Below are positions 2,874-46,400 of a stretch of DNA of 63,430 nucleotides, piece after piece (within the stretch, counting starts at the first letter, position 1; each line of letters opens with the position of its first letter). The notes below the pieces were generated by a model, which did no database searches, was not told the DNA's origin, and worked only from the letters and a program-made list of their open reading frames with translations. This DNA comes from Abditibacteriaceae bacterium (GTDB lineage: Bacteria; Armatimonadota; Abditibacteriia; Abditibacteriales; Abditibacteriaceae): the NCBI GenBank assembly GCA_031372065.1, contig JANMKN010000273.1, forward strand, positions 1 through 63,430, read 5' to 3'. The position numbers and the translations under genes are program-made.

Positions 2874-3902
2874 ATGAACGAAAACAATCAGACCTTTGAC
2901 CAAGATCAAACATTACAGGGGCCACTCCATCAGCAGAAAAAATTCACTTCACTCGATGATTTTTTGAGCGATTGTCAGGGCGTTATGCGTTTGCGACGCT
3001 TAAGTTTGCGCACCGAAGAATCGTATTTGTTCTACATCCGGCGCTTTATCAAATTTCATGGCAAGCGGCCCGATGTCATGGGCGTTAGCGAAGTCGAACA
3101 GTTTCTCACGTTTTTAGCTGCCGAAGAAAATGTCGCGGCTTCCACACAAAATGTCGCTTTTTCCGCGCTTTTGTTTTTGTATCGTCATGTTTTAGAGCAA
3201 CCTTTGCCGCCTCTCATTGCAGCCGTGCGCGCCAAACGACAGCGCCGCGCGCCGGTTGTGCTTTCCAAGCAAGAAGTGACGCTGCTTTTGGCTCACTTGC
3301 CCGCGCCGCACGACCTCATGGCCTCACTGCTTTATGGCTCCGGCTTACGTTTGATGGAACTTTTGCGCTTGCGCGTGAAAGATGTAGATTTCGAGCGCGG
3401 TTTGCTGGTTGTTTATCAGGGCAAAGGCGATAAAGATCGCCACACGCTTTTGCCAAATAGTCTGCGCGAGCCGTTGCGCCTTCATTTGCAAGAAACGCAT
3501 TTGCGCTGGCAACAAGCGCAAACCATCAAAAAGCTGCCGGTTTATATGCCCGGCGCTTTGGCGCGCAAATATCCGCAAGCGGCTTTTGAATGGGCATGGC
3601 AATGGGTTTTTCCGGCCTCGCAGTCGGCGCTCGACCCGCGCGATGGAAACGAAAAACGTCATCACTGGCGCGAAGATACTTTGCAAAAAGCCGTCAAAAA
3701 AGCTACGCGCGGAGCGGAAATTCATAAAAATGTCTCGCCCCACACGCTGCGCCATTCGTTTGCCACGCACCTTTTGGAAGATGGCTACGATATTCGCACC
3801 GTGCAGGAATTGCTCGGTCATCAAGACATCCGCACCACGCAAATTTACACTCACGTTATGAATCGCCCCGGTCTGGGCGTGCGCAGTCCGTTGGATAATT
3901 AA
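2874..3902 (+). CDS. intI: Integron integrase
   Basis: LLYGSGLR, KGDKDR, HTLRHSFATHLLEDGYDIRTVQELLGH..TTQIYTHV, plus the IntI-specific insertion (WAWQWVFPAS..DPR..RHH). Confidence 0.97.
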   Translation: MNENNQTFDQDQTLQGPLHQQKKFTSLDDFLSDCQGVMRLRRLSLRTEESYLFYIRRFIKFHGKRPDVMGVSEVEQFLTFLAAEENVAASTQNVAFSALLFLYRHVLEQPLPPLIAAVRAKRQRRAPVVLSKQEVTLLLAHLPAPHDLMASLLYGSGLRLMELLRLRVKDVDFERGLLVVYQGKGDKDRHTLLPNSLREPLRLHLQETHLRWQQAQTIKKLPVYMPGALARKYPQAAFEWAWQWVFPASQSALDPRDGNEKRHHWREDTLQKAVKKATRGAEIHKNVSPHTLRHSFATHLLEDGYDIRTVQELLGHQDIRTTQIYTHVMNRPGLGVRSPLDN

Positions 3903-3920
3903 AATTGTCGAAAGCAATCC

Positions 3921-6197
3921 ATGAAACCATTTTTATTCGGCGCCTTAGCGCTTTTGGCATCTGCAACTTTGCCCGTTTTGGCCCAAAATCAACATCCTGC
4001 GCTGCCACTTTTGCGCGTGCCGCAGGGCGCGGGCATCAATATTCATTTCACCGACCCGCAGCCCGGCGAGATGAAAATGTTGGCCGACGGCTATCGTTTT
4101 GTGCGCATGGATTTTTCGTGGGGCGGCACCGAAAAGGAAAAGGGCGTTTACGATTTTTCGGCGTATGATCGCTTGCTCAAATCGTGCGATGAACATAAAG
4201 TCCGCGCGCTGTTTATTCTCGATTACGGCAATAATCTTTACGACGATGGCCTATCGCCGCACACGGACGAAGGCCGCGCCGCTATGGGAAAATGGGCCGC
4301 CGCTGCCGTGACGCATTTCAAAGGACGCGGCGTGCTGTGGGAAATGTTCAACGAGCCAAATATCGGCTTTTGGAAGCCCAAACCCAATGTGAACGACTAC
4401 ATTTTGATGGACAAGGCCGTGGCCGCTGCGATTCGACAGGCCGCGCCGGGCGAATGCTATTTCGGCGCTGCGACTTCGACGATTGATATGAAGTTTCTCG
4501 AAGCCTGTTTTCAAAGTGGCGCGCTCGAACGCTGGGACGCGGTTTCGGTGCATCCTTATCGGCAAAATGACCCCGAAACCGTTGCTGGCGAATATCGCAA
4601 TTTGCGAATGCTCATTGAGCGCTACAAGCCGAAAAATAAAGTCGTTCCGATTATTTCCGGCGAATGGGGCTATTCGACAGCGTGGGACAAATTCAATTAC
4701 GAGCGCCAAGGCAAATATCTACCGCGTCAATGGATGACGAATTTGATGAACGATGTGCCTATTTCTATCTTTTACGACTGGCACGATGACGGAGTTGACC
4801 CCAAAGAATCGGAGCATCATTTCGGCACCGTCGAAAACCAAACCTTTGCGGGCCGTGACCCGATTTACAATCCGAAACCCAGTTACACCGCTGCCAAAAC
4901 CTTAACTCATTTTTTCGACGGCTACGATTTCAACAAGCGCTTGGCGCTCGTTTCGCCGGACGATTATTTATTGCTTTTCACCAAAGGCGCCAGCCTAAAA
5001 CTCGCGGTTTGGACGACCAAAGAAGCGCATGAAATCACAGTTCCAGCTTCGGCGGGCAGATTTCGCGTGACCGATTATTTGGGCGCCACGCAACCGGAAA
5101 TGACAGCCGTAACCGGCGGCTTAAAATTGCAAATCAGCGACGGGCCGCTGTATTTGGAGCCGACAGTTTCCAACACGATTTTGCGTAGTGCCGCGACGTG
5201 GGCGCGTGTGCCCTTGGATATGTTTGTCAAAGCGCCAAACAGAGTAAAAACAGGCGGATTTTCGTTGATAACTGATCGCACAGGAAACCAAATACCTATC
5301 GCCCAAATCAAAGAGGTTTTGGTCACACGCAACTCATCAAATCAAATGGTGCGGCGCTTCAAGTGGGTTGAAGGTGTCACTCTTAGACAAACCAGCGAAG
5401 CCGTCGTTACCAATCCGTTGCGGCTAACGCTATCGCCCGCCGGACAAAATCTTGTGGTCAAGGTGGAAAACCCATCTGGCGAGGCCCTGTCGGGGCGCAT
5501 AGTCGGCAATTACAATGAGCCGCAAAACATCGTTTTCAATACGGGCGAAACCGAAAAAACCGTATCGCTGCGTGGTGCGCAGGCTACAGGATTCAGCGGT
5601 GGATGGGAAACGAAAGTGCGTTTCGAAGGCACGGATCCACTGGATGTCGTTGAAGAAAAACGCGGTTTTTCTCCGATTTGGCAAATGCACGTTCTCAATG
5701 AAGTATCGCTGCCCAAAGATTACAAAATTACTCCCGATGGGGATGCCAAAATCGAATCCGAGCAAACGCTTTCAGTGGAACAACCCGCTGAAGGCCCATC
5801 GCCCGCCGACGGCCCATCCTTGAGACTGACTTATCGCTTCGCGCCCGGCTGGAAGTTCGCCAATTTACAGCCAATGAACAAAAGTATTCAGAAAATGGCG
5901 GCTCAAGCCAAAGCGCTTGGAATGTGGATTTACGGCGATAATTCGGGCAATGTTTTGCGAATGCGCTACCGCGATGCGGGCGGGCAAACGTTTCAACCCA
6001 ACGGCACGAGCGTCAACTGGCAAGGCTGGAAATATTTCGAGTTTCCTCTTGATGGCAGCGGCGGTCATTGGGGCGGCGCCGCAGACGGCAAACTGCACTA
6101 CCCGCTTCAACTGGAATCGCTGCTCATTTTCGATTCCATCAAAAGCGAAAACAATCGCGGCGCCATCTACCTGAGCGCGCCAATGTGGATTTATTGA
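3921..6197 (+). CDS. Secreted clan-A glycoside hydrolase (GH5/GH39-like) with C-terminal carbohydrate-binding-like domain
   Basis: Signal peptide, WEMFNEPN acid/base motif, SVHPY, ISGEWGY nucleophile, C-terminal LGMWIYGDNSG/VNWQGWK. Confidence 0.8.
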   Translation: MKPFLFGALALLASATLPVLAQNQHPALPLLRVPQGAGINIHFTDPQPGEMKMLADGYRFVRMDFSWGGTEKEKGVYDFSAYDRLLKSCDEHKVRALFILDYGNNLYDDGLSPHTDEGRAAMGKWAAAAVTHFKGRGVLWEMFNEPNIGFWKPKPNVNDYILMDKAVAAAIRQAAPGECYFGAATSTIDMKFLEACFQSGALERWDAVSVHPYRQNDPETVAGEYRNLRMLIERYKPKNKVVPIISGEWGYSTAWDKFNYERQGKYLPRQWMTNLMNDVPISIFYDWHDDGVDPKESEHHFGTVENQTFAGRDPIYNPKPSYTAAKTLTHFFDGYDFNKRLALVSPDDYLLLFTKGASLKLAVWTTKEAHEITVPASAGRFRVTDYLGATQPEMTAVTGGLKLQISDGPLYLEPTVSNTILRSAATWARVPLDMFVKAPNRVKTGGFSLITDRTGNQIPIAQIKEVLVTRNSSNQMVRRFKWVEGVTLRQTSEAVVTNPLRLTLSPAGQNLVVKVENPSGEALSGRIVGNYNEPQNIVFNTGETEKTVSLRGAQATGFSGGWETKVRFEGTDPLDVVEEKRGFSPIWQMHVLNEVSLPKDYKITPDGDAKIESEQTLSVEQPAEGPSPADGPSLRLTYRFAPGWKFANLQPMNKSIQKMAAQAKALGMWIYGDNSGNVLRMRYRDAGGQTFQPNGTSVNWQGWKYFEFPLDGSGGHWGGAADGKLHYPLQLESLLIFDSIKSENNRGAIYLSAPMWIY

Positions 6198-36401: not shown

Positions 36402-38561
36402 TCAAATTTCTTCGACGCGTAATTGGGCTGTTGCTACTAATTGGTCAAGCCATTTGCCATCGGGTGATACGAGGGGAAACCACCACGCCGTCGGGCGATA
36501 ATTGGTATAACGCAAGCCTTCGCTGGTCATGAGGGCATCGCGGGTGCGACGCAGACGTTCAAGTTCGGCTTCATAGCGCAATTCACGGCGCGTTTGACGC
36601 GCGGCGGCAACTTCTTCGCTGCGTTCGATTGATAGTTTCTCGCGCACCTTTTGCTTGGCTAAGGCGCGCTTTTGGCGCGCGGTTTCGCGTAATGCGCTGA
36701 TTTGCGCATCGAAACGCTGCCGTTCGTGTTCGCAGGCCGCAATTTGCTCGCGCAGAGCCGCAAGTTCCTGATTTTCGCGCTCAAATTGTAAGCGCGTGGT
36801 CTCGCGCTCGTCTTTGGAAAGTTTGCGCGGCTTGCCTGTTGCAGCGTCCATTTCGACGTTGCCTGCGCGGTTTGCTTGCCCTTCTTTGATATCGAAAAGG
36901 CGTTGGCGCAGCGGGTTTAGATTGGCACGAAAATCTTCGCCTTTGGTGCGCTCGATTTGTGCCGCTTGTAAAGTAACGCGCCGCGCTTCGTCGCGCAACG
37001 ATTCGATTTCGCTTTTTAACGTTGAAGTTTGCTCGTGCATGGCCGAAATCGTGGCGTGTGCGGCTTGAAATTCTTCGCTGCGCGTTGTCCATGCGCCGCC
37101 AAAACTGCGCGACAAAAACGCCAATAATTCGCGCGGCGAGCGACAATTTTTCAAATCGGCGCGCAAAGCGTCTTGCGACTCGCAAACATCACTCCAACGC
37201 GCCGCGAATTCACCGGCGGGCAGCGATTTCTGACCAAAGGCGCTTTCCAAGTGCGGCGGCAAATCGAATACGGCGCGCGTTTGCGATAGGGCGTCCCACG
37301 TCGCATATTTGAGGCGCAGCATCGGATGCAAATCCAATTCGAGGCCTGCTTCCCGCAAGGCATCGTTCATTTTCTGCGTGCGCGGCGTGTAGCTGGAGGC
37401 TTTTTCGTGAAACACGAAAATAAATTCCTTCGCCAGCATCGAGATCAGCGAAACCGCTTTGCCAACTAAAACGACATCCGCGCCGAAATTGCTTTCGAGA
37501 ATTTCCGCCAATTGCCCGACGTTTTCACAGTTTGTTTGCAGGACGCGGCGCGGTTCGGTGTCAATCGAAAGCGTGCCTTCCTGCAAATGCAAGGTGCCGC
37601 GCCCGTGACCGGGAATAACCACATCAAAGGGCAACGCGCCGGGGCCAAATTGGTCGAGCGTGTAAATGCCGCTGCCGCGCACTGCGTCGTTGTAACAGCG
37701 CGCGGCGATTTCGCGCGTGGCCGGATTCAAAAACAAATCCACAAATTCAAAACGCGGCAACTGACAGGTTTCGCGGTTGAATTTAAAAAGGCGCAGCGAC
37801 GTGCTGGTGGTGAGATTACACGAGCCGGTGCCGCGCACCATCGCCCACAAGCGCGGCGTCAGCCAACGATAAAAATCCGACAACGTGCCATCGGGGTCTT
37901 GATTCAAATAATCGCGCGTCCAGCCAAAAATCTGGTTGGCATTTTCGCGCGCCATTTTCGCGCACGCCTCGCAAACGCCGTTGTCATTGGTCCACGCGAT
38001 TTGCAGGCTCAAATTGATGGCCCATTCAATTTGCCCCACCAAAGATGGCCCCATATCGCGCAATTTCACATCGCCGGCAATCATCGAACGCGCCGAGGTT
38101 TGCACCAAGGCACGCCAGCCCCACGCGTTGGTTTCTGCATTTAATAAGGCCTCGGCGCCACCGGGATAATCGCGCGCCACGCGGTCAAATTCCACGCCGT
38201 TTTCGGTCAAAAGATGGCGCGACGGCACGATTTCGCTGCCGAACAAGCAGGAAATTTCGCCCGCCGCGCTCCACAGGCCGCGTGTGTCACCGTCGTTGTG
38301 CGAGAGTAAGGCGAATTTCTCGCGGCGTTGCGCTTCGCCCTCGAAGTGCGACAATTTGGCGAAGTAATCGGTATCGTGAACCGCAGCCATCATCACGGCA
38401 TCGGGCGCGACGACTTCCAAAATGCGACAAAAAGCGGCTTTGACAGGCTCATCCCATAAAGCGGTTTGGCCCAAAGTAAGAAACGGCGTTTGCGGAAAGC
38501 GTTTGCGCAATTCTTGAATCGCGGACGCAGAAGAATGAAGATCAGGCATTTTTAAGCTCAA
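36402..38561 (-). CDS. Hypothetical protein with long C-terminal coiled coil
   Basis: 719-aa ORF with host-like codon usage and E/R/A-rich heptads in the C-terminal third. Confidence 0.8.
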   Translation of the reverse strand: MSLKMPDLHSSASAIQELRKRFPQTPFLTLGQTALWDEPVKAAFCRILEVVAPDAVMMAAVHDTDYFAKLSHFEGEAQRREKFALLSHNDGDTRGLWSAAGEISCLFGSEIVPSRHLLTENGVEFDRVARDYPGGAEALLNAETNAWGWRALVQTSARSMIAGDVKLRDMGPSLVGQIEWAINLSLQIAWTNDNGVCEACAKMARENANQIFGWTRDYLNQDPDGTLSDFYRWLTPRLWAMVRGTGSCNLTTSTSLRLFKFNRETCQLPRFEFVDLFLNPATREIAARCYNDAVRGSGIYTLDQFGPGALPFDVVIPGHGRGTLHLQEGTLSIDTEPRRVLQTNCENVGQLAEILESNFGADVVLVGKAVSLISMLAKEFIFVFHEKASSYTPRTQKMNDALREAGLELDLHPMLRLKYATWDALSQTRAVFDLPPHLESAFGQKSLPAGEFAARWSDVCESQDALRADLKNCRSPRELLAFLSRSFGGAWTTRSEEFQAAHATISAMHEQTSTLKSEIESLRDEARRVTLQAAQIERTKGEDFRANLNPLRQRLFDIKEGQANRAGNVEMDAATGKPRKLSKDERETTRLQFERENQELAALREQIAACEHERQRFDAQISALRETARQKRALAKQKVREKLSIERSEEVAAARQTRRELRYEAELERLRRTRDALMTSEGLRYTNYRPTAWWFPLVSPDGKWLDQLVATAQLRVEEI

Positions 38562-38693
38562 TTAAGCCTTTAGTTAAGCAAATTGGAGAGTAAAACGTAA
38601 AAAAACGTCGCGCCCATGACGATTTAATGTTTCTCCGGCGCCCTTTTTGAAAAAGATTTAGTAATTACCCAAGTTGCCAAGAATGCCTGACCT

Positions 38694-38731
38694 CAAAACC
38701 ACCGTCCCCAGCGTAGGGGACGGTGGTTTTG
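38694..38731. terminator. Rho-independent terminator downstream of secA
   Basis: CAAAACCACCGTCCCC..GGGGACGGTGGTTTTG. Confidence 0.8.
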
Positions 38732-38746
38732 CTTTGGGCTATGCCT

Positions 38747-38863
38747 TACCTTTCGCAGGTATAGCTCTACCTTTTGAAGGTAGAAGCCAACCTTTTACAG
38801 GTAGAAGCTAACCTTTTGTAGGTAACCCAACAGGTAGAAGCTAACCTTTTGTAGGTAACCCAA
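38747..38863. repeat. 21-bp-period array of WACCT-N5-AGGTA palindromes
   Basis: Units at 38747, 38768, 38789 and 38810, then a ~33-bp duplication. Confidence 0.85.
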
Positions 38864-38982
38864 GTTGTTCCCTGCCTACTGAAAGACAGATGGCTGTAAA
38901 AAGGGCGATGTCTCGTTTGGAAGAGTTAGCCGGTTCCCTTCCTGTTGTTCTGACCTTCAACGCGTTAAGCGCTTAATTTGGC

Positions 38983-41900
38983 TCACGCCGTTTTGCCGTG
39001 GCATTTTTTGAACTTCTTGCCACTGCCGCACGGGCATGGATCGTTGCGGCCAACACCAGCGAATTTGGGGTCAACTTTCGCGGCGTTGGCATTGGTTTGA
39101 GTCTGCGGCGCCGGGCCACTGCGCGTTACAGCAGGATTCGACGGACGCGTGGCGGGCGCTGATGAAATTGGTGCCGCTTGGCGTTGCGTTTCGCGTTGTG
39201 CTTCGCGCTGTGGCGGGCCGCTCATCATGCCTGCGGGCACAACTTCGCCGCTTTCGTCATCCAAACTGCCATCGCCGTCCGCGAATTCCATTGGCAAAGT
39301 GGTGGTGATGCGGTCTTCCTGCATTCCAAACAAATCGGGGCCGGCATACATTTGTGGTGTTGGTGCGCCGATGTCGGCGTCGAAGATGCCTTCGGCGACT
39401 TCCTTGCGAATTTCGCCCAGCATCTTATGGAACAAGGAGTGGCCTTCCTGACGATACACATGAACCGGGTCTTTTTGAGCGTAGCCTTCTTGCCAGATGG
39501 CATCGCGCAAATAGTCCATTTCGGCCAAATGCTCCATCCAATGATCGTCAATCGAACGCGTCACTTGCCAGCGTTCGAGAGAACGCATGGTTTCTTCGCC
39601 GACTAATTTTTCGCGATCTTGATAAAGCTCTGCAACCACGCCATAAAGTGTGCGGCCATCCTGCAAGCGCGCATCAAAATCGGCTTGCCCCAGAGCAATT
39701 TCGGGCAAATCGAAATACTGCATATCTTCCAAATCAGCGGCTCTCAAATGCTTATGCAGCAAACTGGCGCCGAAGATTTTGGCGTAGTTTGCATACAACT
39801 TGTGCGTGTCCCATTCTTCGGGTTTCACTTCGCGCGGGCAATATTTTTCGGCTTCGGCAACGGCGGCTTTTTGCGCCATATCCAGCACCGTTTCGTGCAA
39901 GTCGCCGCCCATCAAAGCGCGACGGCGTTCGCGATAAATCACTTCGCGCTGCACGTTCATTACGTCGTCATATTGCAAAACGTGCTTGCGGCTCTCAAAG
40001 TGGTTCAATTCCACTTTCTTTTGGGCGCGTTCGATGCTTTTGGAAATCAGCTTGGCTTCGACTGGCTCGTCTTCGTCCCAATTCTTCAAAAGAAACTGCC
40101 CGCGCACGCCAAATAAGCGCCACAATTCGTCTTCGAGCGACACATAAAACTTCGATGAACCGGGGTCGCCTTGACGGCCCGCGCGGCCTCGCAACTGGTT
40201 GTCAATGCGCCGCGATTCGTGACGTTCGCTGCCAATAATGTGCATACCGCCGAGTTCTTTCACAGCTTCCTGCTCGCTGGTGTGCGCAATATCTTCGGGG
40301 CGCGCTTCGCTTTCCAAAACGATGTCGGCGCTTTGTCCGGCCACGCCGGTTTCGATAACGACACTGCTGCCCGTGACTACTTCTTGCGGCGCGTCCTCGA
40401 AAGTCGCCACGCGTTCGGCAACGTAATCTTCGAGTAGCAAAGGCGCTGACCACGGCGCGTTTTTTTCTAAATGCGCGATGACTTTGGCCGCGTCGCGCCC
40501 GTTTTGCATAGCGGCTTCGCGCAGTGTTGGCTCCAAGGCGCCCAACGCGTTTTCAAGGCCAACGCGATAAATTAAAACGTCCACCGGCACTTCCTGCACA
40601 TTGCCACGCTCATCTTGCGCTTGGGCCATCATTTGCGCTTGAAAAACGGAATTTTCATCTACCAAACCAAGGCCTATCATCATTTGATGCAGCCATTCGG
40701 GTTGCAGAAAATCGGCTTCGCCGCCGAGCATTTGGCCCATTTGACCGAGCAAAACCAAGTTCGGCATATCCAAAGCCACTTGCGCGCGGCGGAAACCGGC
40801 ATCTTTATCCCACTGACGCGCTAATTTGCGCGCCGCCAAGACGTTCAGGCGATAATGCACAATCGCATTGTCGCCCAAAATCTCTTGAACTTCTTCGGGC
40901 GCCGCAAACGAACGCTGATTGCTGACTATGTCCCAGCGTTGCAAATACTCGCGCACCCAGTTGGCGCCGATGCCTTCGATGCCAAGATTAAACAGAATCT
41001 GCACATCATTGATTTCGATTTCATCGGACGAAAGCGACTGCCATTTTTGCGCGGCGCCAGTGGCGTTTTCGATGTTTAATTCTTTCAGACGCTTGACCAC
41101 CCATTCGGGCGTGACGTTGCCGATGGCGGCAGCTAAATCATTCGCTTTAAAATCAATCGGCGTTTCGGCGCCGCTTTCTTTGGCGTGCTGCAAAAGCAAG
41201 CGGTCAAGATCGGGCAAGTCAATCAGCGTCTTAACCAATTGCGCGACGGCTTCGTAATTCTGGCGCATCGGAAAACCGATGGCGTTCAGCAAAAGCATCT
41301 CGCCAAAGTCGCGGCCTGTGGCTTGCGTGGCGATGCCGTTTTCCAACATCTCGCGCAACTGCTGCGGCGAGAAACTGAGGCCCATCAAGCGTTTCAGGCT
41401 GTTGTTTAAGGCTTCGAGCGGCCCGTTATCGTTGAGCGATTCGTCGTCAAGCGGCAATTTATCCAGCAAATTCAAGCGCTTGGCGCGCGAACGAATGCGC
41501 TGTTTCAAATCCGCCGACGTGAGTTCGGTGCCCAGGGCGTCGCGAATTTCCTTGGCATTCTGACCGAAAAGCTGGCCGCTGTTTTCCAGTTCCTCGGCGG
41601 CTTGCTGCACATTCAAAACCCACGCCAGCGTTTGCAAAGCATCGGGCGTAAAACGACTTTCCAGTTTATTGGTGGTTTCCTGTGTGCGCGAGCGAACATG
41701 AACGCCTTTGCCTTCGAGTTGGCGGCCCATTACCTGTTGCGTCATGACACGCCAACGCGATTCGGTGTCGAGTGTGCCGCCGAGCAAAATGTCCACGCCG
41801 CGTCCGGCCATGTTGGTGGCAATCGTCACGGCAGCGGGCCGCGCGGCTTCGGCGATAATGCGCGCTTCGTTGCGGTGATTCTTGGCGTTCAAAACGTTGT

Positions 41901-44900
41901 GTGGCAAGCCGTTTTTCAAAGCGCTGCTTAAACGTTCGCGGTCAGGATTAGAAACAGTAAACAGACCGAGCAGCTTGTTGATATTTTCATCGGCCACCGG
42001 GTCGGGATTCATGCCGACTGCTTTGGCGATGTTTTTCACTTGCAGCACATTGAGTTGCTGAACCGGCAAGCGCAAGGCCGTAAAAATCGCTTCGCGCTGC
42101 TCGCCGCCGAGGTTTTTGTCCTGCCACAATTGCCACTTGATGAGGTGCGAGAGCGCCAGCGCTTGCAACGGCTGCGCTTTGAGGCGTTCGGACATTTTTT
42201 CGGAAACATCCACGCTGCGAGTGCCGACCAAAACCGGCTGACCCGACGCATGATGTTCGAGGATTTCCAAAGTGATAGCGCGGAATTTCGCTTCGGCGGT
42301 TTTGTAAACCACATCGGGAAAGTCGGTGCGGCTGACTTTGCGATTGGTCGGAATTGAAACGACTTCGATGCCATAGGTTTTGGCGAATTCCTGTTCTTCG
42401 GTTTTGGCCGTGCCCGTCATGCCCGCCAGCTTGTTGTAAAGGCGAAAATAGTTCTGAATCGTAATCGTCGCCACAGTTTGCGATTCGAGTTGCACTTCGA
42501 GGCCGTGTTTGGCTTCGAGCGCTTCGTGCAAGCCTTCGCTGTAGCGGCGCCCCGGCATTTTGTGGCCGGTGTTTTCGTCCACAATAACGATTTCGCGGCC
42601 ATTTTCGATGACGTAATGCACTTCGCGGTGATACAAAGCATGAGCGCGAACGGATTGATCTAATACCGATTGCACTTCCTGCAATTTCGCTTCGCTGACG
42701 CGGCGGCGCCGCTCGGCGGGCAAGCGCAACACCCGGTCAATCACAGTTGACAAATTCTGATTCGGCGTTTCGGCCTGCGCGCGGCGCACAAGGGCCGCTT
42801 CGTCGTCGGTGATAATCTCCGATGAAATCAGCGAATCGAGAAAGTTGTCCGGGTCGGTAAAGGCCGGGCTACCCGCTTCGCGTTCGGCGATGAGCGTGCC
42901 CATGTCGGTCAGCGAGGCCTGACGGCGCTTTTCGTCTTTGTCAGCGAACCAGCCGAGGCTGATGACCATGCGCTTGTAATCTTCAAACTGCGTGACCTGA
43001 AAACTGCGCTCCAGCAAACGCCAAATTTGACGCTCCAACTGCTCGGCACTGCGATTGGTGAAATCCGCTGCTTTGATTTTGTTTTGCGTTTCTTTGGCAA
43101 GTGGAATGCGGCGCTTGATTTCTTCGACGAAAGCAGGCGCGTTTTCTTCAGTCAAAAGCGGCTCCAAGTGACGATTGACGGCATCGGCGGCGAGTTCGGC
43201 GAAAATCGCGTGCTGCAAAAGTCCTTTGATTGGCTTGTTGAGCAAATCGGCGATGGAATATTCCGCATCGGACGACATTTCCAAAATCGCGCTGACATTC
43301 TTGATGAGTTCCGCGTTTTGCCGGGCTTTGAATTCGTCCCACGCAGTGCCCCATTCTTCGAGGGAAGCGGCAAAAGCGGCCGCTTCGGGCGCGGCCAAAA
43401 GCTGGTGGCTGACAAACGCTTCAAAGCCCGTTGAATAAGTGCCTTCCTGAATTGCTTCGCGGATGGATTGCGTGTTTTCGTCGGGCAGTTGAACTGCTTC
43501 TTGAATGCGATGCGCCAGCAAATCGGCGTTTTCGATGCGCCAATCTTGCAACTGGCGTGCGGCTTCGCCCACTAAGGCGGGCAGTTCGGTGTTTTCGCCG
43601 GGTAAGTCGCGCACGGCCAACAAAATGCGCTCGTTTAGTTGCTCGCGCGTGCCGCCTTCGTTCATCATTTCGGCAATGGCACGCTTGGCATCGCGCGGCA
43701 CTTCGACCCATTGCTCTAATTCTTCGACGAGGCGCCCGGCGCTCTCATCGTGGGCGCGTTTTTGATCGGCGGCAAACTGCTTGGCGGCTTTATAGGCTTC
43801 CGCGAGCGCGCCGCTTTTGGTCAGTTCATTTTGCAAGGCGCGCGAGAGTTCATCGGCGTCCTCGCCGCTGGCGGCCCGCTTGGCAATCGTTTCGTGACCG
43901 TGCAATTTCAAGCGCAGCGAATCGGCTTCTTTTTTAAGAAATATTTCGCGCTCATCGTCATATTTTTCGGCAAGCCCGGCAATTTTCTGCGCCACATCGC
44001 CCGGATGCTGAACGATGGCTTGCGCGATTTCTTTGCGCAAACCGTCGCGGCCTTGCGTGAGTCGAACCTGCTCCCACAACTTCTCGCTCATCTCGAAAGG
44101 CAGCAGGCCGCGCAGCGAAATTTGCTCCAAAGCACCAATCACATCGCGCACTTGCGCGGGCGATAATGTATCGCTATCGGGCACCGCTTCGAGCAGCAAA
44201 GTTTCGGCTTCATGCGCGCCACCGGGCACTTCCAGCACGATTTCAATTAAAGCGGGCAACAAGGCGGCTTGGTAGATTTCGAGCGCGCGGCCTACATTTT
44301 CGGGCCGCTCGAATCCAACTAAAGCGGCCTGAATCATCTCCGTCGCGCTTTCCTCCACAATGCCGCGCCGCGCGATTTCTTGCGCCACCAAACGCGCCGC
44401 ATCGGCGTTTTCGTCATCCAATTCAGCATAAACATCGGGCGAAAGGCCCAAATCAGCGGCCAAACGCATCGCATCGAAGCCCAGCACACTGGCGTTGGCA
44501 TAAGCTGCCGCGAATGGTTCCAGCAAATGGCTGATTTCGCGCTGCCACGCGGCGCTGAGTCCGCGTGGGCGCACGGCGTTGGTGGCGATATTTTCGAGTT
44601 GCGCTTTGCCGCCATCGCTAATAAGGCCATCGTTTTTGAATTCGTCGGCCACGTCTAACAAATGCGCGGCGTTTTCGATGCGCGCGCTTTTTTCGCTGAT
44701 AAGATAAGCGTCAATCAAGTAAGAAATCGCTTGGCGGAAGGCACCACGTTTTTCGATTTCGGCCAAAAGCGCGCCGATGTCAATGCGCCCTTTGCTGGAC
44801 AGCATATCCAGCATATTTTCCACTTCGCGCTCGGTGATGGCGGGCATCATTTTGCGCGCGAGGCCGTCGCAAGTTTGCGCCATCGTTTGGCGGCGCAGGG

Positions 44901-45783
44901 CGCGTTCGGTTTTAGCAACCTGCGCCGAAATAATCAGCGGCGTGCGCGCTTCGTCAATGAGAATGTTGTCAACTTCGTCCACAATGGCGAAGTTGAGCGG
45001 GCGCTGCACCATGTCTTCGGGCGTGCGCGCCATGTTATCACGCAGATAATCGAAGCCGACCTCCGAGTTCGTCGCGTAGAGAATATCGGAATTATAAGCC
45101 GCCTGACGCGCCTCATTTTCCATGTCGTTGGTCAAAAACGCCACGGTTAAACCGAGAAATTCGTGAATGGGCCGCATCCAGTTGGCATCGCGCTCGGCCA
45201 AGTAATCGTTGACCGTGATGACATGAACGCCGCGTCCGGTAAGCGCGTTGAGATAACACGGCAGCGTGGCAACAAGAGTTTTGCCTTCGCCAGTGCGCAT
45301 TTCGGCGATGCGTCCCGAATGCAGAACCGCGCCGCCAATAAGCTGCACATCGAAGTGGCGCAGGCCAATAGCGCGATCACCGGCCTCGCGCACAAGAGCG
45401 AAGGCCTCGGAAATGACCTCGTTCAAAACCGCTTTTTCGGCATCGCGGCGCGCTCGAACATAGTCGTCGCTCCACGACATTTCGGTGTCGAGTTCCTGCC
45501 AACCATAGGCTTCGCCGGTTTTGGGGTCTTTCTGCGCGCCAAGGCGCTGCGTGATGCTTTCGCGCACCTTCTTTTTCAGCGTTTGGGAGCGCGCTTTGAG
45601 TTCTTCGTCCGACAAGGCTTTGAGTTCAGGGCCAAGGCGGTTCACTTCGTCCACGATGGGCCGAATTTTGGCGACTTCTTTTTCGTTGCGATCAATAAGT
45701 TTGGACAAAGCGCCCGCAATGCCCGACGATTGTTCGCCCGGCGTTTCGGCGCGCTTGCCGAAAAGATTTTGTAACAGTGACAT
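38983..45783 (-). CDS. secA: Preprotein translocase SecA, giant (~2266 aa) with large insertions
   Basis: [98 protein letters not shown] before ATG 45783. Confidence 0.96.
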
Positions 45784-45929: not shown

Positions 45930-46400
45930 TCAATTCCGAAAACGATTGGTGCGGATGCCGCTGAGTTTGGCGGCTTCGTGAGAAGAAAGAACACTCGCGA
46001 ATGCGGAGTGCCGAATGCAGAGTGCGGAGTGCGAAAACGGCTTAATTGGTTCAGTCGCGTTTAGAGGAGCCGCAGTTTGAAGCGACGAACCCAACTGCGT
46101 AAGTGGGCTGTCAATGTCGTTGTGCGGGCACAAAATTTCGCACGGCGAATGTAGAATTCCGTATTCATCATTCGGAACTCCACATTCCGAAAGGGCCTGC
46201 TTGAGTAAATCGCGCGTGGGCGCGCCTTCGGGCGATTGCAGCCATTGCCAAACGGCTTGCGGCTGTGTGGCGGCGTTATGAATCGGCGCGGCGGCCAAAA
46301 CCGAGGGGGCGACGGTGAGTAGCGCAAACATCACCAGCAGGAGGGGATTCCATTCTCCCCGTCGCCGGTTGTTAAAGATGTTCGCCGCGTGTCGTCGCAT
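45930..46400 (-). CDS. Signal-peptide uORF directly upstream of secA; candidate SecM-like secretion monitor
   Basis: 156 aa with basic N-region, hydrophobic core and VLA-AA cleavage-like site. C-terminus LSGIRTNRFRN. Has its own extended -10 promoter. Confidence 0.6.
   Translation of the reverse strand: MRRHAANIFNNRRRGEWNPLLLVMFALLTVAPSVLAAAPIHNAATQPQAVWQWLQSPEGAPTRDLLKQALSECGVPNDEYGILHSPCEILCPHNDIDSPLTQLGSSLQTAAPLNATEPIKPFSHSALCIRHSAFASVLSSHEAAKLSGIRTNRFRN

Follow-up and report, generated by a model that had tools for sequence, protein, structure and literature searches.

The housekeeping SecA of the class Abditibacteria is a giant form of the preprotein translocase motor, which occurs class-wide. 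The gene studied here lies in a contig of 63,430 nucleotides from an Abditibacteriaceae bacterium (GenBank assembly GCA_031372065.1, contig JANMKN010000273.1; hereafter the window), where secA occupies positions 38983-45783 of the minus strand and encodes 2266 amino acids in a single stop-free frame, with a purine run resembling a ribosome-binding site ahead of its ATG. SecA of this class is about 2.5 times the usual size. An original prediction, made from the letters of this stretch, had described a giant SecA of this length, and both the open reading frame (ORF) and the profile scores given below bear it out; what it did not notice is that duplicated SecA accounts, by profile comparison, for a large share of the added residues. 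We consider that the added parts would act as a docking scaffold on both jaws of the substrate clamp of an ordinary motor, a role that we infer with a probability of about one half.

Identity and distribution of the giant SecA

The protein exceeded the Pfam cut-offs for the SecA_DEAD, PP_bind, P-loop, SW (wing/scaffold) and SEC-C domains, and scored above the cut-offs of both broadly applicable NCBIfam housekeeping models tested (864.6 bits for TIGR00963, cut-off 800, and 920.4 bits for PRK12904, cut-off 814). The full SecA domain order was present, with the first nucleotide-binding domain (NBD1), the preprotein cross-linking domain (PPXD), the second nucleotide-binding domain (NBD2), scaffold and wing. 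The genome of origin (assembly 94% complete) contained one SecA, a third profile match falling under the cut-off, and no second copy was seen beside the giant in 29 same-class genomes, a check that the original prediction had proposed. An accessory SecA2 identity was rejected, since all four SecA2 models tested remained under their cut-offs and the gene is single-copy.

The length survey proposed with the original prediction covered 29 same-class genomes (the genome of origin plus 28), and in 23 of them the secA frame is open over 2143-2356 codons. In the other six, contig ends truncate the gene or it is spread over two contigs (five genomes), or it is frameshifted but still covers both inserts (one genome), and a contiguous SecA_DEAD match appeared in none of the 29. 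In other classes of the phylum the secA frame reached at most 1277 codons among the rows listed, except for three rows of family f18. In G002, G092 and G104 (L060:5616-13105; L056; L057) secA was interrupted by frameshifts or a stop; these are most likely assembly errors, because the gene is the sole copy in those genomes. The 22 complete relatives, belonging to four families, were colinear with the giant SecA (40-84% identity, and 24-83% within the inserts).

A protein search with residues 300-1025 returned 48 clusters of 1887-2350 amino acids, whose source names, where given, were Abditibacteriaceae or Abditibacteriota. A scan of genomes found 27 loci, in records that bear the names Abditibacterium, Abditibacteriaceae, Abditibacteriales, Armatimonadetes or unclassified bacterium; one of them (L121) is a complete genome record not labeled as a metagenome assembly and carries the giant secA, so that proteomics and cloning look feasible. 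In a quick tree built from the core only, the Abditibacteria SecAs came out as a single branch, with a support of 100, within the Armatimonadota SecAs, a topology that fits vertical inheritance. We found no earlier description of a giant SecA in Abditibacteria in the open-access literature searched.

Integrity of the gene and its product

Misassembly, or inserts removed as inteins to leave a SecA of about 100 kDa, is hardly credible, although the length is unusual and the product is known from sequence alone. Run X1, which perhaps represents the source sample, provided contigs that overlapped in tiles spanning the entire gene with zero differing letters, and contigs of run X2 (another sample of the same study) covered codon 1074 and portions of the two large inserts with no mismatch. 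Together with the 48 independent protein clusters and the 27 loci, including the complete genome record, these overlaps speak against misassembly. The G+C content at third codon positions was 0.62-0.63 in the core, in insert 1a and in the NBD2 insert alike. No intein or Hint family matched the protein in Pfam or further profile scans, in keeping with the absence of inteins noted in the original prediction; neither a Hint beta fold nor splice-junction residues were found at the insert ends, insert 1 was predicted to be all-helical, and cysteines were confined to positions 176, 305 and 1982 and to SEC-C. The NBD2 insert is, moreover, explained by duplication.

Conservation of the motor

All parts of the gene described below lie on the minus strand. 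Giant SecA kept 210 of the 227 positions conserved in 23 outgroup SecAs, so the earlier claim that all core motifs are intact holds for nearly the whole core and fails at the C loop, where His1074 (codon 42562-42564, confirmed by contigs of two samples) replaces the conserved Arg aligned with R322 of Bacillus subtilis. His occupied this position in four of 64 giants, the remaining 60 keeping Arg. The first part of NBD1 (residues 28-288; 44920-45702), with Walker A and B, had a mean identity of 73% among the 22 relatives, and the end of NBD1 together with the first half of NBD2 (1091-1336; 41776-42513) was recognized from identity and the structural model as the conserved working copy. The second half of NBD2 with motif VI (1836-1906; 40066-40278) was assigned by Pfam, model and conservation. 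Pfam and alignment likewise placed the scaffold, a single wing domain and the two-helix finger (1907-2135; 39379-40065), whose tip showed class-specific changes at 2095 and 2098, as well as a variable linker and the SEC-C metal-binding motif (2136-2264; 38992-39378). SEC-C is retained here, as originally stated, but in only 21 of the 64 giants, one of the 21 being a partial sequence.

Compared with the housekeeping SecAs of B. subtilis (1tf2/1m6n), Escherichia coli (2fsf) and Thermus thermophilus (2ipc), the giant has its domains in the same order and shares with them the ATPase motifs, PPXD loops, scaffold, wing, two-helix finger and SEC-C; like them, it is single-copy and occurs with a normal SecY/SecDF. 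It differs in its 2266 residues, against 841-997 in the longest solved full-length housekeeping chains, in about 680 residues added in PPXD and about 440 at the variable position of NBD2, and in a degenerate tandem copy of half of NBD2.

Both large inserts evolve under purifying selection: in the eight closest pairs the ratio of nonsynonymous to synonymous substitution rates was 0.11-0.19 in insert 1a and 0.08-0.15 in the NBD2 insert (0.04-0.10 in the core). Patches of conserved Arg, Asp and Glu occurred in the inserts at 725-733, 867-892, 1025-1035 and 1811-1830, and their polar character suggests that they may serve contacts and not folding alone.

Two inserts split the preprotein cross-linking domain

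The original prediction had placed about 750 additional residues in PPXD. The span was right, but it consists of two inserts (312-935 and 981-1035, about 680 residues net) around retained PPXD elements, so that PPXD is split, not replaced. The stem and first normal helix (289-311; 44851-44919) and the usual hairpin-helix element (about 940-980; 42844-42966) are both kept inside it, a profile of normal SecAs matching the latter in all 64 giants (12 bits at the median, with the reversed control below 0). The C-terminal part of PPXD, with C loop and PP loop (1036-1090; 42514-42678), was identified by profile match and alignment. In a predicted model of residues 275-1105 (mean predicted local distance difference test score, pLDDT, 85.5) the inserts were helical throughout and PPXD reassembled around them, the PPXD chain of 5k94 aligning over model positions 20-825 (Z 7.0, root mean square deviation, rmsd, 3.9, 130 aligned).

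Insert 1a begins with an acidic, all-helical part (312-595; 43999-44850) showing a weak internal repeat at offsets 84-96, and continues as four to five tandem helical repeats of about 68-72 residues (596-935; 42979-43998). Offsets of 72, 132-144 and 204 were detected over about 600-935 (unit length 68-72 residues), and hhalign probabilities between the non-overlapping units among 669-740, 741-808, 809-876 and 862-935 were 53-92, the overlapping pair 809-876 and 862-935 being excluded; the first unit gave 20 or less against the others. The last repeat (862-930) matched a wing-unit profile built from normal wings plus f18 repeats with probability 88 (score 32, reversed-tile maximum 18.7), the normal-wing profile alone with 43, and its own wing with 0.2, that is, no match. 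An origin of the PPXD repeat from a wing unit is thereby suggested, at the level of profile similarity. Repeated copies of the PPXD bulb were looked for by profile and not found. Stand-alone relatives of the PPXD insert were not found: among proteins of 30-380 residues the six matches were all fragments, and among 1.84 billion representatives, the sole search covering lengths 381-1245, the 17 matches were giants or fragments plus one low-complexity helical protein (E 4e-4). The ESM Atlas gave no usable match for PPXD insert 1.

Insert 1b (981-1035; 42679-42843) is a small helical knob ending with four conserved Arg, whose predicted shape resembles the N-terminal part of MshEN, a c-di-GMP-binding domain (8pdk, Z 7.1, rmsd 1.9, 56 aligned; 5htl, Z 7.0), although the MshEN motif is degenerate. 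These Z values of 7 are within the background of helical models.

Duplication within the second nucleotide-binding domain

Two kinds of additional sequence were found in NBD2. The shorter one, announced in the original prediction as about 90 extra residues before PHNVLNAK, is present as about 88 residues (1203-1290; 41914-42177) and is nothing special to the giant, since its profile matched every one of the 11 SecAs of normal length examined from the phylum; on this profile and alignment evidence it is phylum-wide and outside the novelty. It aligned at low identity with Thermus SecA 2ipc and occupies the same NBD2 site as the 76-residue conserved signature insert described at the NBD2 periphery of T. 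thermophilus SecA (PMC7023208). That work calls the insert specific to Thermales and Hydrogenibacillus, whereas we found an insert of like size in the Armatimonadota and Anaerolineae-type SecAs tested. This Thermus-type element accounts for only 88 of the extra residues.

The longer one agrees with the predicted span of about 500 residues at the variable-subdomain position, as alignment confirmed, of which about 440 are added with respect to solved SecAs. It begins with a degenerate tandem copy (1340-1510; 41254-41766) of residues about 1160-1310, found in 64 of 64 giants (E 3e-9; hhalign probability 97.7, E 1.7e-12). Three helix-turn-helix-like repeats (1535-1755; 40519-41181) follow according to model and repeat comparison, mutually similar at hhalign probabilities of 71-94, and the insert ends in a highly conserved strand (1805-1830; 40294-40371), probably a remnant of a duplicated helicase motif V, with a weak match to the motif-V region in 58 of the 64 giants (6.9 bits at best, against 0.3 for the control). 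Because of the tandem copy at the start and the motif-V-like strand at the end, duplication of the first half of NBD2 is shown at the level of profile alignment, the second copy having taken up about 300 further residues. The first copy is the working one, with 93% mean identity at 1293-1336, and the NBD2 model (pLDDT 84.9) joined it to the C-terminal half (E. coli 3bxz, Z 13.8, rmsd 2.5, 140 aligned, 54% identity). In this model two of the three units had the strand order of winged helices; no helix-turn-helix or winged-helix family or fold was confirmed for them, and no such family was matched by more than two of 22 members.

The inserts were also compared with known structures, as the original prediction had advised. 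Both were predicted to fold with the pLDDT values given above, and Foldseek (PDB, BFVD) and VIA-align, run with models of 746 and 831 residues that are too large for single domains, found only SecA above background. PDB sequence profiles of both inserts yielded nothing under E 1, and in the ESM Atlas part of the NBD2 insert obtained scores of 0.76-0.77, below the usable range.

It is improbable, in our estimation, that the inserts are a regulatory add-on in which the knob would sense c-di-GMP, or the helix-turn-helix units would bind RNA or DNA, for instance the secA message. The likeness to 8pdk and 5htl, the clustering of MshEN-N profile matches at 960-1010 (45 of 64 giants, best 4.5 bits) and at 1680-1720 (39 of 64, best 9.2 bits; reversed control -0.1 in both), the more canonical-looking MshEN motif of basal giants, the 22 GGDEF matches in the genome and the predicted winged-helix strand order are in its favor, but the background-level Z values and the weak hhalign probability of 42-51 are not. 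The Arg-Leu-Gly tandem signature, which we take to mark c-di-GMP binding by MshEN, is absent from insert 1b. The helix-turn-helix-like repeats are net acidic, with predicted recognition helices near neutral, and lack a recurrent family match.

Enlarged SecAs in other lineages

By domain and repeat assignment, SecA is enlarged at other sites in other lineages. In family f18, which belongs to the same phylum, SecA measures 2494-2608 codons (L054:5005-12588, L053:5322-12977 and L055:1157-8980); it is intact in four of seven genomes of its class and has 17-20 tandem wing units. Among 8000 candidates, 526 SecAs had at least 1485 residues, and 80 were analyzed from the 120 listed. A group of about 2180 residues (P0087, P0124 and about 25 similar proteins, one member being named Anaerolineae) lacked SEC-C and was longer by about 1240 residues in its wing region, with repeats of about 63 residues. 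Like the Abditibacteria form, both of these groups are SecAs of housekeeping type that grew through internal repeats, but they expand the wing, whereas Abditibacteria expand PPXD and NBD2 and keep a single wing. A single clade of Abditibacteria and f18 giants was not rejected (approximately unbiased test, p-AU 0.54); it is the different insert sites, and not the tree, that argue for their independence. Other long SecAs analyzed included groups of 1490-1640 residues. Enlarged NBD2 insert plus wing, N-terminal extensions or five wing units were seen in the P0082-P0147 group (1487-1534 residues), P0098 (2009 residues), P0073-P0077 and P0069, the extra 500 residues of P0098 carrying the Pfam label MgtE_N.

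Proposed role of the inserts

PPXD rotates towards NBD2 and thereby clamps the substrate, according to PMC5963308 and PMC9926265. The docking-scaffold reading is proposed because the appendages sit on precisely these two domains, PPXD and NBD2, and keep charged patches. Growth at two surface sites of SecA would have begun in the class ancestor. The first half of NBD2 was duplicated in tandem, its second copy losing its motifs and gaining the three helix-turn-helix-like units, and PPXD gained a helical insert extended by the repeats of about 70 residues, probably seeded by a wing-unit copy. ATP turnover between NBD1 and NBD2 would, to judge from the conserved parts, drive the PPXD/NBD clamp and the two-helix finger and move preproteins into a normal SecYEG. 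The unspliced product, of about 250 kDa, would keep folded appendages on both jaws of the clamp, and these would most likely hold arriving preproteins, or the ribosome or trigger factor that carries them, and bias clamp closure, with no chemistry of their own. Three same-class genomes were tested for other export components, and there SecY (at 437-461 codons), SecD/F, trigger factor, Ffh and FtsY all had ordinary sizes; SecG gave a weak match in two of five genomes and none in G000 or in a normal-SecA genome. The original view of a motor with large built-in domains therefore stands as regards an intact motor anatomy with additions that are predicted to fold, are selected and remain unspliced, whereas its chaperone role has found no support so far. 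The acidic helical domains on both jaws may still bind clients.

Several observations weigh against a docking function. His1074 stands where, in PMC9926265, a clamp C-loop Arg (B. subtilis R322) is reported to be needed for translocation. Near-invariant columns made up 4-22% of the inserts, as compared with 58-62% of two core segments, and one family lacks about 110 residues of the NBD2 insert, which fits a loose structural role. No SecB-like, trigger-factor-like or other chaperone family was found in the inserts by sequence. The acidity of the inserts (net charge -47 and -23) speaks for the scaffold but is only modest, with -5 to -9 per 100 residues against -4.7 in the core. Since the inserts were modeled apart (predicted template modeling scores of 0.71 and 0.54), their direction with respect to clamp and membrane is not fixed, and the best score for a wing origin of the PPXD repeat came from a profile in which another lineage's repeats are enriched.

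Some of these points would be expected if the additions were entrenched accretion, that is, duplications fixed by drift at tolerant surface loops and kept for buried surfaces or folding with no added function. This explanation is possible but rather less probable in our view: the duplicated origin of the extra sequence, its low conservation and the tolerance of SecA for bulk at other sites elsewhere (the 17-20 wing units of f18 and the Anaerolineae-type repeats) agree with it, but about 1200 extra residues have been maintained at near-constant length in four families, including genomes of 2.4-3.8 Mb, and the inserts contain conserved charged patches.

A narrower form of the docking scaffold, a holdase built into SecA that would stand in for SecB with large secreted enzymes, appears doubtful. 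SecB was unmatched in the 11 same-family genomes searched, the helical domains are acidic and glycoside hydrolases are encoded within the window. SecB was also unmatched in 108 of 110 other genomes of the phylum, nearly all with a normal SecA (matches in two of 121 in total). The SecB check suggested earlier thus gave the expected absence in the family but did not discriminate, its absence not tracking SecA size; because SecB is missing from normal-SecA relatives too, this is not evidence for replacement. Trigger factor is present, no secA neighbor other than the upstream ORF was common to more than four of 23 loci, and SecA length (2143-2356) did not follow genome size over about 2.4 to 8.0 Mb. 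The original prediction's connection with large secreted enzymes encoded close by is therefore not supported.

A more ambitious reading, which we hold to be unlikely, is that the two inserts co-evolved as a cage made of SecA's own parts, giving a single-chain holdase-translocase whose level would be set by a new class of arrest peptides. As part of this, a helical arm from PPXD and an NBD2 pseudo-domain of three winged-helix units would surround the preprotein at the clamp mouth. If it were true, repeated SecA gigantism in several phyla would be a general, overlooked extension of the Sec motor.

Returning to the docking scaffold, SecA has been treated as an essential motor of conserved size, and the inserts discussed in PMC7023208 have 50 and 76 residues. 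A class-wide form of 250 kDa shows how much bulk the moving PPXD and NBD2 tolerate, and it sets limits on models of how the clamp closes, of dimer geometry and of how ribosomes bind. It is also a natural test of whether duplicated motor parts become surfaces for binding clients or partners; were the inserts inert, they would document long-lived accretion in an essential enzyme.

A candidate secretion monitor upstream of secA

An ORF of 156 amino acids (45930-46400, minus strand) stops 146 nucleotides before secA. Upstream ORFs of 131-237 amino acids were found in 17 of the 18 same-family loci having upstream sequence, and in none of four loci of three other families. Their layout consisted of a basic and then hydrophobic start, judged as a signal segment by hydropathy and basic residues, a spacer of more than 100 residues with a variable middle, and a conserved end in which, counted from the stop, Leu -20 (16 of 17), Gly -10 (17 of 17) and Asn -6 (16 of 17) stood out. 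Codons for Leu, Ser and Arg positions varied synonymously; because four positions used a single codon, constraint at the RNA level may contribute to the conservation.

The ORF has the four features used for screening in PMC10987492, being a small unannotated upstream ORF with a localization signal, a conserved C-terminus and a spacer above 30 residues. It is like the SecM/RQH-family and stop-adjacent arrest peptides described there in its position before secA, its signal-like start, its spacer of more than 100 residues and its conserved C-terminus, and unlike them in having no proline-containing RAPP-like motif. It is accordingly put forward, from its layout and conserved end, as a candidate for a new SecM-like class of arrest peptides with a proline-free motif, and offers a new candidate arrest motif. 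The main text of PMC10987492 mentions neither Armatimonadota nor Abditibacteria, and its supplements (all but file 8) contain 37 occurrences of Armatimonadota and no Abditibacteria rows. RNA folding gave no consistent unmasking of the ribosome-binding site by a stalled ribosome, the mean unpaired probability going from 0.44 to 0.53 (over 17 loci) and from 0.41 to 0.42 here; the intergenic region upstream of secA had a fold z of -1.15.

Signal-bearing upstream ORFs were also seen at other loci. In f18, those of L053 and L054 end in an Arg-Pro-Pro motif 40-48 nucleotides before secA, and at L071, an Armatimonadota secA of normal length, an ORF of 100 amino acids ends in a RAPP-type motif.

Other features of the window

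Elsewhere in the window, a phage-type integrase is followed by a 758-residue ORF with no Pfam family (2874-6197, plus strand). Past secA, a 719-residue ORF with no Pfam family and with a coiled-coil-like C-terminal region (36402-38561, minus strand) was not conserved near secA in other loci. The intergenic stretch between this ORF and secA (38560-38983) contains a strong GC-rich inverted repeat at about 38700-38730 and short tandem repeats at about 38770-38860, and contig depth increased at 38768-39084, which suggests a repeated element.

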